Of a DNA stretch of 64,000 bases, positions 15,772 through 63,905 are shown piece after piece. The position numbers and the translations under genes were made by a program. Positions within the stretch are counted from its first letter, which is position 1, and every line of letters starts with the position of its first letter. Below the pieces are notes generated by a model. The model ran no database searches. It was given only the letters and a program-made list of their open reading frames with translations, and was not told the DNA's origin. This DNA comes from Escherichia phage RB3, in the sequence record KM606994. One strand, 5' to 3'.

Positions 15772-15779
15772 TATTTATA
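15772..15779 (-). promoter_or_regulatory. late promoter TATAAATA upstream of soc
   Basis: Plus strand tatttata about 30 nt upstream of soc ATG. Confidence 0.55.
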
Positions 15780-16642: not shown

Positions 16643-17641
16643 TTAGCCATTAACCCCCTGGGCAATATTATTTTTCATATATTCCATAATTTGTTCAGGG
16701 GTTGCACCTTCCTTTCTAATCATATCATTGACATCTTTTGATTTCCAGGGAGATTTATCCCAAAACATAACCCTTTCTCCTGCATCAACTAATTTAGTCA
16801 TTCGTTTAATAGTGTCAGGGTGACGAGGTTCATTATCTAAGACCCACACTCGTCTATCTTTAAATGGAACAATTTCTAGGTCTAATTGACCACCCGTAAT
16901 AGCTATACCATTTTCAATAAAAAGTGAATCTATAGGTCCTTCTAGAACATATACATCACCATCTTTAACTCGTTCGACTCCATAGATTTTTGTTGCCTCA
17001 GGATAAGCTTTAATGGTGATATATTTTTGGGGAGCATCTTTCTTTAATGCACGTCCTTGAAAAGACTCAGCTTTTCCATTAGCATTATAAATTGGAATAA
17101 CAAGACGAGGCTCAGGTATTTCCTTTTTATATGTTCCCGGTGCTATACTATTAACCAATTTAGGCCATTCGGTTGTAAACCAAAGATATTTCCATTTATC
17201 CTTTGGAATACAACGAGCTTTTACATATTTTATAATTGGATGGTCTTCCGCCAGTTTATCTAATCTAACACATGACGGAAGAGATTTAATTATTTTCTTC
17301 TCAGGTTGTTTAGGAAGTTCTTTAGGTTTTTCTATTGGACGACTTTTACCTTTTTCTTTTCTTATTTCAAAGATATACTCACGATATAAATCAGGTTCAA
17401 ACTCCTTTAAATATATTCCGATTGGTGCATGATAGTTACAGTTATAACAATGAATATTTCCTTCATTATTATCACCATAATACCATCCACGAGCTTTATT
17501 CTGGTCGGTTTTTGAATCTCCACAAACAGGACATCTAAACCGTAATTTAAAAGTTGAACTATTATTTACTTGTGTGAATTTAGGTAAATGAGCTAATGCA
17601 CGATACGCAAACTCATTATCAATCCAAGGTATTGATGACAT
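16643..17641 (-). CDS. 61: DNA primase gp61 (332 aa)
   Basis: Zinc ribbon CPVCGD...CYNCNYH plus TOPRIM-like region; adjacent to gene 41. Confidence 0.9.
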   Translation of the reverse strand: MSSIPWIDNEFAYRALAHLPKFTQVNNSSTFKLRFRCPVCGDSKTDQNKARGWYYGDNNEGNIHCYNCNYHAPIGIYLKEFEPDLYREYIFEIRKEKGKSRPIEKPKELPKQPEKKIIKSLPSCVRLDKLAEDHPIIKYVKARCIPKDKWKYLWFTTEWPKLVNSIAPGTYKKEIPEPRLVIPIYNANGKAESFQGRALKKDAPQKYITIKAYPEATKIYGVERVKDGDVYVLEGPIDSLFIENGIAITGGQLDLEIVPFKDRRVWVLDNEPRHPDTIKRMTKLVDAGERVMFWDKSPWKSKDVNDMIRKEGATPEQIMEYMKNNIAQGVNG

Positions 17642-17644
17642 TCT

Positions 17645-17809
17645 TTACTCTTCTTTTTCTTTAGATTCCTCTTTCTTCTTTTTAGGAATCTGTTCAGGAC
17701 CTTTATTTACTACAGCGCCTGACGTTGTTCCAGTAGAGATATTTTCAGGATTACCACCTGAATCTCCAGCGACCATATCTTCTTTGATAAATTCTTTATA
17801 TGTTTTCAT
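17645..17809 (-). CDS. small protein (54 aa) with N-terminus resembling the internal-protein capsid targeting sequence
   Basis: Hand-translated MKTYKEFIKEDMVAGDSGGNPENISTGTTSGAVVNKGPEQIPKKKKEESKEKEE; not in ORF track. Confidence 0.35.
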   Translation of the reverse strand: MKTYKEFIKEDMVAGDSGGNPENISTGTTSGAVVNKGPEQIPKKKKEESKEKEE

Positions 17810-17821
17810 ATTAGCCTCTAA

Positions 17822-18115
17822 TTATTCACCTACCACTTCAGCGATGATATTTTTATTATTGAAGTTTTTATCACAATACAGAACGTAATTATACTGCATT
17901 ACACCACCAGACTTAAGCTGTTTTTGTACTTCAGCTTTCATTTCAGGGCGATCACGCTCAACGATATTCATAATATCTGCTTCAATCTGAGTTTCAACCT
18001 CAGTCTGATCTGCAGTCATAGACCATTCGCACAAATCTTTATCATAACCTGCCATAGCAGGCTGAGCAGCACAAGAAGCTAAAGCAAAAATTGCAGCAAA
18101 AACAAATTTTTTCAT
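17822..18115 (-). CDS. sp: secreted periplasmic protein, spackle-like (97 aa)
   Basis: Signal peptide MKKFVFAAIFALASCAAQPAMA; size and position as T4 sp (61.3). Confidence 0.55.
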   Translation of the reverse strand: MKKFVFAAIFALASCAAQPAMAGYDKDLCEWSMTADQTEVETQIEADIMNIVERDRPEMKAEVQKQLKSGGVMQYNYVLYCDKNFNNKNIIAEVVGE

Positions 18116-18144: not shown

Positions 18145-18173
18145 TAGTATCTCAATTTCTAACAAAAGTAAAC
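18145..18173 (-). promoter_or_regulatory. early promoter (GTTTAC, 18 nt, TACTAT) upstream of sp
   Basis: Plus strand motif ending gtaaac at 18168-18173; GAGGAG RBS follows. Confidence 0.4.
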
Positions 18174-18427
18174 TATTTTATTTCCTCAAGTTCGTTAATC
18201 AATAAAAGTTCTCTGACGCTAAAAACAAAGAAAAATGTGTTCCCATCAACCAGAGCATGACCGCTAATAGAACACCCTCTGCGGAATTTAGAAACTTCAC
18301 AATCTAGAACTGTAAAGGGTTTTAATCCTATGACTTTAGCTGTGCGTCTATTCAGTTCACAACCACTTGCGAATTTTTCCAAATCTTCTTCTGATTTAAA
18401 CTGATATTCTCTATTAACTAGCATCAT
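18173..18427 (-). CDS. hypothetical protein (84 aa)
   Basis: ORF track. Confidence 0.4.
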   Translation of the reverse strand: MMLVNREYQFKSEEDLEKFASGCELNRRTAKVIGLKPFTVLDCEVSKFRRGCSISGHALVDGNTFFFVFSVRELLLINELEEIK

Positions 18428-56973: not shown

Positions 56974-56981
56974 TATTTATA
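56974..56981 (-). promoter_or_regulatory. late promoter TATAAATA upstream of the rI.1/rI genes
   Basis: Plus strand tatttata about 25 nt upstream of ORF start. Confidence 0.45.
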
Positions 56982-62349: not shown

Positions 62350-62823
62350 TTATTTGAACGATTTAACGTACTGAATAGAACCTTTACTATTCACGAAAGC
62401 GATTTTACCATTTTTATTATACATGGTAGCAGTACGCTGATAGCCATAAGTTTGCTTACCAGATTGATAACCAACTAATGCAAAATTATCTTCACCCATT
62501 TTATTCTGTTTAGCGCGAATGCGTTCATGACCATGCGCCATAAGAACCTTAGCATCACCAGTTGCAATGGATCGACGAGTTTTTTCATCTTCAACTGTAT
62601 TAACAAAGTCGTCAAATGAATCAAATTTAGCATGAGATTTATTATACAGTTTTCCATCTACTGCATAATTATATCCCTGTACATCCATCTCAACTTCTGT
62701 ACCATCATCCAGTACAGCAGTGATTTTCTGTCCTTTTTTAAATTTCAAAAGATCAGTAAAAGATTCAGCAATAATTTGAGAATTAATAGCTGCTTCAGTA
62801 ATAAATTCTTGATATGTTTTCAT
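62350..62823 (-). CDS. internal protein (capsid-targeted, IPII/IPIII-type, 157 aa)
   Basis: N-terminal MKTYQEFITEA matches the T4 capsid targeting sequence; located upstream of e. Confidence 0.65.
   Translation of the reverse strand: MKTYQEFITEAAINSQIIAESFTDLLKFKKGQKITAVLDDGTEVEMDVQGYNYAVDGKLYNKSHAKFDSFDDFVNTVEDEKTRRSIATGDAKVLMAHGHERIRAKQNKMGEDNFALVGYQSGKQTYGYQRTATMYNKNGKIAFVNSKGSIQYVKSFK

Positions 62824-62917: not shown

Positions 62918-63905
<988 letters not shown>

Follow-up and report, generated by a model that had tools for sequence, protein, structure and literature searches.

How proteins are selected for the prohead core of bacteriophage T4 is still called 'mysterious' in current reviews, and the capsid-targeting sequence (CTS) of this phage is widely used to load T4 nanoparticles. 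The T4 internal peptides II and VII are cut after Glu by the protease gp21 from the abundant core and scaffold proteins gp22 and gp67, and some of them stay in the head. Within the CTS, experiments have assigned residues 4 and 7 to targeting and residues 8 and 10 to processing (PMC9026906). The N-fist of gp23, which is the major capsid protein, comprises residues 66-91 (PMC7136217); in the unexpanded head, residues 66-105 lie inside the shell, disordered and presumably in contact with the core (PMC9546572), and after expansion the N-fist segment is found on the outer surface, where it touches four subunits and helps to form the Soc site (PMC9546572, PMC9958956). The giant phages SPN3US and phiKZ remove head-protein propeptides of 100-130 residues with a gp21-like protease (PMC5694885). 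We consider here gene 61.1 of Escherichia phage RB3, in a stretch of 64,000 nucleotides (sequence record KM606994; hereafter the window), a Tequatrovirus genome segment with 99.9% identity to phages RB5, RB6, RB7, RB9 and RB10.

Judged by its sequence, gp61.1 appears to be a free-standing copy of the gp23 maturation junction, in which a leader, a gp21-type site and an N-fist module are followed by a Lys-rich tail. The parts of the gene are as follows:

17645..17809, minus strand: gene 61.1, from the open reading frame (ORF) listing and the sequence; ATG start, 54 codons and a TAA stop (17645-17647); product MKTYKEFIKEDMVAGDSGGNPENISTGTTSGAVVNKGPEQIPKKKKEESKEKEE
17780..17809, minus strand: CTS-like leader MKTYKEFIKE, codons 1-10, with a predicted gp21 site at its end (I8-K9-E10, cut before D11)
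17696..17779, minus strand: N-fist-like module DMVAGDSGGNPENISTGTTSGAVVNKGP, codons 11-38, Gly/Ser/Thr-rich, by homology to gp23 residues 66-93
17648..17695, minus strand: tail EQIPKKKKEESKEKEE, codons 39-54, Lys-rich and of low complexity

An initial annotation had noticed this 54-amino-acid (aa) ORF between gene 61 and a spackle-like gene, and it is indeed present there on the minus strand with an ATG start. What that annotation proposed, a packaged and injected protein with a targeting leader, left out the homology to the gp23 cleavage junction and N-fist, which is the main feature of the gene.

The gp23 maturation junction and the CTS-like leader

Residues 2-38 of gp61.1 align without gaps to residues 57-93 of gp23, with 16 of the 37 positions identical (43%; BLASTP E=1e-8). 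A PDB-wide search returned T4 gp23 as the sole significant match, at E=0.0085 with the sequence alone and E=2.3e-5 with the family profile. Profile-to-profile comparison with hhalign gave 97.3% probability (E=1.8e-11) for the short forms of the family, with residues 1-43 of gp61.1 placed on gp23 55-98, and 98.2% (E=6e-14) for the long forms described below. By these alignments, residues 1-43 of gp61.1 are homologous to gp23 55-98. The gp23 stretch matched runs from the end of the Delta propeptide through the gp21 cut site and covers the N-fist. The cleavage sites fall in register, I8-K9-E10 (before D11) over L63-T64-E65 (before A66), and the leader determinants Y4, F7, I8 and E10 align to F59, F62, L63 and E65 of gp23. 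The 26-28 residues that follow the site in gp61.1 align on the N-fist, and this module is the most conserved part of the family.

The site itself is maintained across the family. Among 127 distinct family junctions, 122 carry a Glu 3-4 residues before the sequence AGD; 118 of these 122 have a hydrophobic residue (L, I, V, M or F) at P3, 88 of them L or I, whereas the background frequency is 25%; P2 varies freely. The conserved hydrophobic-x-Glu motif corresponds to the (L/I)-x-E pattern of gp21 sites, a putative signature of cleavage by the prohead protease. The initial annotation had noted that in T4 such a leader is removed after an I/L-x-E site, and I-K-E followed by D fits the gp21 rule.

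The leader, in turn, resembles that of a known type of head protein, encoded elsewhere in the window:

62350..62823, minus strand: internal head protein gene, a comparator with the canonical CTS MKTYQEFITE, downstream of late promoters at 63426-63446

The match of eight residues in ten between MKTYKEFIKE and this leader, on which the initial annotation was built, is confirmed. When candidate starts of all window ORFs of at least 25 aa were scored (1937 starts), only 61.1 and the internal protein reached at least 7/10 against either leader, and the next-best match (6/10) lay in a non-gene; the resemblance is therefore beyond chance. All four determinants mapped experimentally in the T4 CTS (Y4, F7, I8 and E10) are kept in the 61.1 leader, which bears out its description as CTS-like. 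At the DNA level, the first 30 nucleotides of 61.1 and of the internal-protein gene agree at 25 positions, a figure whose weight is limited by the AT-richness and codon bias of the leader, and the regions upstream are unrelated. The leader may have arisen by recombination with the internal-protein gene or by an internal deletion. Among the short forms of the family, 24 of 32 start with the CTS-like pattern M-K-[TS]-[FY]-x-[ED]-F-[VIL].

Starts of the type MKTY[QNKS]EF[IL] were also seen away from 61.1. Six such ORFs occur in Dhakavirus IME341 (NC_055742.1, 96-122 kb; contig L037) and five in the 52-80 kb region of Mosigvirus KAW3E185 (contig L030). Several are annotated only as hypothetical (L037:6986, 69 aa; L037:10385, 154 aa; L030:20454; L030:11945), and from their starts we consider such ORFs likely to be unrecognised internal or injected proteins.

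Absence or frameshifting of the ORF in relatives, which had been named as grounds for dismissing it, is not what we found: 500 phage records share residues 1-42 at 95% identity or more, and about 500 Tequatrovirus records carry an intact copy of the gene. The 61.1 family as a whole occurs in about 1480 records, compared with 1549 in which the N-fist region of gp23 is covered. Cyanophages are missing from the 61.1 matches, and the alignment of their gp23 begins no earlier than residue 73-93. A word-indexed search with the gp23 N-terminus returned 11 fragments only.

The 61.1 family and probable late promoters in relatives

A search with a family hidden Markov model (HMM) against 1.84 billion representative proteins yielded 50 clusters, and a second search 122 long-form proteins. 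Most members of the family measure 120-165 aa and carry, in place of the decapeptide, a helical N-domain of ~105 residues with the consensus ..Y..R...LL..PF..W.A.K.GIID..G.., followed by a variable linker, [LIVMF]-x-E, the module M-V-A-G-D-S-G-G ... N-I-A-S-G-x-T-S-G ... G-P and a poly-Lys tail. These long forms are found in Vibrio (KVP40-like), Aeromonas, Acinetobacter, RB16/RB43-like, CC31, S16-like and Mosigvirus phages, and Sinorhizobium phage phiN3 has a degenerate copy two genes before its primase. For one long form, AlphaFold2 predicted a helical N-domain at a pLDDT (its per-residue confidence) of about 90 and a disordered module at a pLDDT below 50. The fold of the N-domain had no PDB match with E below 4 and corresponded to no known fold, and a search of BFVD retrieved only family members and oversized entries. 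An HMM search of six-frame ORFs found no long-form N-domain in the window.

DNA similarity between the short 61.1 gene and the Mosigvirus long form starts exactly at codons E10-D11, so that the cut site coincides with a module boundary. Since most of the family has the helical domain of ~105 aa at that place, the short T-even-type form with its decapeptide is best read, on these comparisons, as a derived, lineage-specific acquisition. The tail is strongly basic in most relatives (KKKKKK, KKRKK). In T6-type 61.1 (62 aa; P0002, P0004), a frameshift in the A-rich tail turns KKKKEESKEKEE into KKKKRNLKKKKSKNVINTLD (compare window 17645-17690), and the ORF continues into the start of gene 61; because the first 45 residues are left unchanged, the tail seems loosely constrained, to being Lys-rich and no further.

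In several long or extended members, the poly-Lys tail is followed by an aromatic motif (KKFRHFE, KRFNHYE, KSFLEF, KTFDEFV, KTYKEW, NFKQFVE). Its carriers are L004:2183-2662 (VH7D), P0059, P0061, P0044, P0041, P0040, P0053 and P0058, and P0040, P0053 and P0058 have an additional domain of ~100 aa behind it. This motif is similar to the CTS-like one at the N-terminus of the short forms and may be a portable short linear motif; it also resembles clamp-binding tails such as KKASLFDMFDF.

Evidence on the timing of expression comes from the late-promoter octamer TATAAATA, of which the 64 kb contain four copies, all on the minus strand, where 10.9 were expected from shuffles:

15772-15779, minus strand: TATAAATA octamer
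56974-56981, minus strand: TATAAATA octamer
63426-63433, minus strand: TATAAATA octamer
63439-63446, minus strand: TATAAATA octamer

Three of the four sit a short way upstream of soc and e, both of them late genes. Of 21 related contigs, 11 (JS98/Dhakavirus-like, Kosakonia- or Enterobacter-like and Klebsiella Marfa-like) have a perfect copy 21-29 nucleotides upstream of the 61.1 ATG, at a spacing equal to that of the gene e late promoter in the window. These octamers stand in four distinct flanking contexts, with only 1-2 octamers per 8 kb, and other related contigs have the one-mismatch octamers AATAAATA and GATAAATA. Judging from these upstream sequences, several genera very probably express 61.1 late, which would suit a component of the head. 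The classification of T4 61.1 RNA as 'early' was considered as evidence against a role in the head and was rejected, as ipI-III, e, wac and hoc are classed alike.

A possible prohead peptide and competing explanations

We tentatively favour the reading that gp61.1 is a small, gp21-processed peptide targeted to the prohead, which we regard as possible while falling somewhat short of probable. In the unexpanded prohead, the gp23 counterpart is internal and presumably contacts the core and is cut by gp21; gp61.1 would therefore bind the same partner. It would be carried into the prohead core by a removable N-terminal part, and cleavage by gp21 after Glu10 would yield a peptide of 44 residues (DMVAGD...KEKEE); its first tryptic peptide would be DMVAGDSGGNPENISTGTTSGAVVNK, with Asp11 at the N-terminus, the uncut tryptic form being EDMVAGDSGG...VVNK. 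In most other T4-like genera, the helical domain of ~105 residues would act as the removable part, for which T-even-like phages would have swapped in the CTS-like leader. The mature peptide might persist inside as a minor constituent, leave by the capsomer pores or dock at the place of the N-fist.

A more specific version, which we put forward as a long shot, takes gp61.1 to be a late-made 'free N-fist' that rides in on the receptor of the gp23 junction, is cut by gp21 and then docks wherever an N-fist is missing or disordered (e.g. near the portal) or uses its Lys tail to tether DNA. If this were true, the T4 CTS would itself be a copy of the end of the gp23 propeptide, and its long-sought receptor would be whichever site binds the maturation junction of gp23.

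The packaging proposed in the initial annotation thus gains from the register of the cleavage site with that of gp23, the family-wide conservation of the motif and the late promoters in relatives; it loses ground through the absence of gp61.1 from the T4 whole-cell proteome and through a leader that is both derived and drifting. Several observations speak against a prohead peptide, and we set them out together. In a time-resolved whole-cell proteome of T4 covering 85% of phage proteins, gp61.1 was not detected, despite offering a good 27-residue tryptic peptide, and a mass-spectrometry study of T4 heads does not mention it. Knock-down of 61.1 in T4 by CRISPRi-ART had no fitness effect (score -0.84, 'Not Fit'). 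Even Sinorhizobium phage phiN3 keeps the gene beside those for helicase and primase, and the region around it has been called an anti-toxin island (PMC9391042). P1' in the family junctions is often Asp or Glu, which gp21 may or may not accept. No TATAAATA octamer lies near 61.1 in the window or in T4-type sequence, where only the degenerate octamers GAATAATT and TATGAATA are found upstream, and the long-form genes of Vibrio, Aeromonas and RB16 phages have no octamer upstream.

The leader adds to these difficulties. Internal-protein leaders are almost invariant in Mosigvirus and Dhakavirus (MKTY[QN]EF[IL][TA]E), and six internal proteins of Dhakavirus keep this form while the 61.1 product of the same genome starts MKSFKEVMNE; in Marfa-type phages the 61.1 leader has become MTLLEKYKQSLSE. 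Because the Dhakavirus and Marfa-type leaders drift in this way while those of the internal proteins stay fixed, the 61.1 leader appears, from sequence comparison, to be less constrained than a true CTS. The notion that the 61.1 leader tracks the internal-protein CTS of the same genome was rejected for Dhakavirus; it does not apply to Mosigvirus KAW3E185, in which the internal proteins are canonical and 61.1 is a long form without a CTS.

Co-variation gave no encouragement either. Pairing gp61.1 with the gp23 N-fist across five genera (RB5, Proteus PM2, Xman, Phi1/JSE and nt-1/VH7D) revealed no excess for cognate pairs: all combinations shared 13-18 identities of 30, and 24 of 120 permutations reached the observed value. 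The two segments keep the same pattern without detectable co-evolution.

Some of the same observations would suit an assembly regulator or decoy acting outside the head, in which gp61.1, as a soluble mimic of the gp23 junction and N-fist, would not be a virion component. It might engage the gp21 protease, the gp22 scaffold, the docking surfaces of Soc or the N-fist, or a chaperone, and so tune protease activation, nucleation or expansion. The gp23 homology and the in-register protease site serve this explanation as well as they serve a packaged peptide, the disordered module predicted by AlphaFold2 is of the kind expected of a linear motif, and non-detection in particles and dispensability in the laboratory fit a modulator. 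T4 moreover already has an inhibitor of gp21, Inh, which is annotated in RB5, and the capsid-length mutations A66D, A94V and G97S fall in the mimicked gp23 segment (PMC9546572). However, a cytoplasmic competitor would need neither a CTS-like leader nor a long removable N-domain, no head-shape or burst phenotype has been reported, and the absence of co-variation with the cognate gp23 is as awkward here as above. We regard such a regulator as unlikely.

The location of the gene raises a further alternative, namely that gp61.1 is an anti-defence decoy, a capsid mimic that, early or on injection, saturates or blocks a host sensor of the N-terminal part of new gp23. The gene sits in the dmd-tifA-sp-adfA region, and other genes of the island have been called 'attractive candidates' (PMC9391042). 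Proteins bearing a CTS typically serve as anti-restriction factors that are injected (HIDEN-SEQ preprint), immunity is commonly triggered by major capsid proteins, including the Gol peptide of gp23 for Lit (PMC9712102, PMC3014915), and the lack of a fitness effect in a laboratory host would be unsurprising. Unlike anti-defence genes, which turn over fast, the gene is conserved at one locus in almost every T4-like phage outside the cyanophages, those of Vibrio, Aeromonas and Acinetobacter included, and the late promoters in relatives speak against early pre-emption. A sensor of the N-fist is not known, and overlap of Gol with the mimicked segment is unlikely, as judged only from the description of Gol as the most conserved stretch of gp23. 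In our estimate a decoy is improbable.

Returning to the prohead peptide, its interest lies in linking the CTS to the gp23 maturation junction, since one short disordered peptide combines an internal-protein-type leader with the sequence that follows the gp23 cut. It suggests the idea that the CTS imitates gp23 residues 56-65 and binds the same site on the core or the protease, and it makes gp61.1 an additional candidate substrate of gp21. If gp61.1 is not packaged, it would be a rare phage-encoded mimic of the phage's own capsid protein, of interest for assembly control or immune evasion. In the literature that could be searched, we found no description of the combination reported here (a leader of the CTS type, a gp21 site in register with that of gp23, a homologue of the N-fist, a long, ancestral propeptide-like domain and late promoters in relatives).

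Genomic setting, annotation and known systems

The surroundings of the gene in the window are compact:

17815-17818, minus strand: GAGG ribosome-binding site (Shine-Dalgarno), read from the sequence, with a 5-nucleotide spacer to the 61.1 ATG
17822..18115, minus strand: sp (spackle, 61.3), the upstream neighbour of 61.1
16643..17641, minus strand: DNA primase gene 61, the downstream neighbour, whose ATG lies 3 nucleotides past the 61.1 stop

Genes follow in the order 41 ... sp, 61.1, 61. The same 41/61.1/61 neighbourhood is found in VH7D, Aeromonas phage 65, RB16, KAW3E185, JS98-like phages and phiN3; gaps to gene 61 measured elsewhere are 40-143 nucleotides, compared with 3 in the window.

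Such synteny could point to a replication accessory peptide that acts at the primosome or on DNA, with the resemblance to gp23 as an evolutionary leftover. T4, KVP40-like phages, Aeromonas phage 65, RB16 and Sinorhizobium phiN3 all retain the association with 41 and 61, the 61.1 stop lies 3 nucleotides from the start of gene 61 in the window, and the tail is basic. The larger gaps elsewhere, however, show that this tight coupling is not general, the N-domain has no known DNA-binding or replication fold, and the late promoters in relatives fit poorly. About 50% identity to the N-fist has been kept over very deep divergences, together with the protease-type motif, which argues that the resemblance is not a decaying relic. 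The sole apparent fusion of gp41 with gp61.1, a 679-aa 'DNA primase-helicase subunit' of Aeromonas phage Assk (MH791404.1; L032:896-2935), was rejected as an assembly artefact that spans Ns in an unverified genome, and similar false fusions probably explain the BFVD matches of 672-913 aa. A role in replication therefore strikes us as very improbable. We also reserve a minor share of belief for something other than the readings considered, and continue to regard a prohead-targeted peptide as the leading candidate.

Contrary to the initial annotation, which had called the ORF unannotated, gene 61.1 is already annotated, as a hypothetical protein, in RB5, T4 and hundreds of relatives. Its RB5 entry is RB5_034 ('hypothetical protein, 61.1') and its T4 entry T4p034 (UniProt P39228). 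A full-length profile match links it to the PHROG family phrog_1823 (E=7e-34, residues 1-54 of 54), and its C-terminal module matches the long-form family phrog_2086 (E=2.6e-16). Searches of the 54-aa product against Pfam, including the Gp23 domain (PF07068), and against NCBIfam gave no match, nor did PADLOC. The product is not similar to AdfA either, for which the Pfam model matches 61.2 only.

In many phage records, homologues of 50-165 aa bear the label 'major capsid protein' or 'major capsid domain-containing protein' (e.g. NC_054944.1, PQ657821.1, KM236237.1, MN038175.1 and OP870144.1); one homologue is labelled 'methyltransferase' and another 'exonuclease'. The capsid label is a by-product of the gp23 similarity. 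As a functional name it is a propagated mis-annotation and wrong, because there is no match to the Pfam Gp23 domain and 54 aa are too short for the HK97 fold. The gene is thus catalogued and uncharacterised, its relationship to gp23 having been known before only in the form of this automatic mis-annotation, and the literature searched held no discussion of its function.

Between sp and 61.1, phages of the T4, T6 and P8 types carry the anti-DarT gene adfA/61.2 (208 aa; L002:2711-3337 in P8), which is absent from the window, where sp abuts 61.1 across a 12-nucleotide spacer (17810-17821). Relatives that retain adfA align to the window in two pieces around an insertion of ~600 bp that contains it, which fits its absence here.

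Two further features of the region were noted. An ORF of 84 aa (RB5_036, hypothetical) lies between sp and 61.4 at 18173-18427 on the minus strand, within the proposed anti-toxin island, and no counterpart is annotated between sp and goF in phage P8. At the 3' end of primase gene 61 (window ~16647-16651, minus strand), the window reads GGGGG where RB5 has GGGG. The extra G shifts the frame of the last 11 codons, and the product ends in ...NIAQGVNG (332 aa) in the window and in ...NIAQGLMAKMRLSKYAKI (342 aa) in RB5; it could be a homopolymer sequencing error or a real truncation of the primase C-terminus.

Of the systems described at the outset, the T4 internal proteins are the nearest to gp61.1 in their leader. 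IPI, IPII, IPIII and the hypervariable internal proteins share with it the decapeptide MKTY.EFI.E, ending in a gp21-type (L/I)-x-E, and like them it is small, non-essential and encoded on the same strand, with late promoters in several relatives. Unlike them, it lies outside the internal-protein loci, is conserved rather than hypervariable and has a leader less conserved in other genera. Its mature part is a predicted disordered peptide of 44 residues, slightly acidic in the T4 type, whereas the internal proteins are folded and basic; its body is homologous to gp23, and its packaging is a prediction from sequence.

In its body, gp61.1 is closest to gp23 (PF07068). Residues 55-98 of gp23 align to it without gaps, at 43% identity for the window pair and 43-60% across the five genera, with cleavage sites in register and the common pattern GD.G...NIA.G.(T/S)SG.(V/I)...GP. 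Unlike gp23, gp61.1 has only this segment of 40 residues, with no HK97-fold body and no continuation into Gol and the N-arm, and bears a poly-Lys tail instead. Peptides II and VII differ in being fragments of the scaffold; gp61.1 would be a dedicated gene product, unrelated to them in sequence. The long forms find their nearest parallel in the propeptides of SPN3US and phiKZ, to which we found no relationship of sequence or fold: as in those head proteins, a long N-terminal domain, here of ~105 residues, precedes a hydrophobic-x-Glu motif at which cleavage is predicted.

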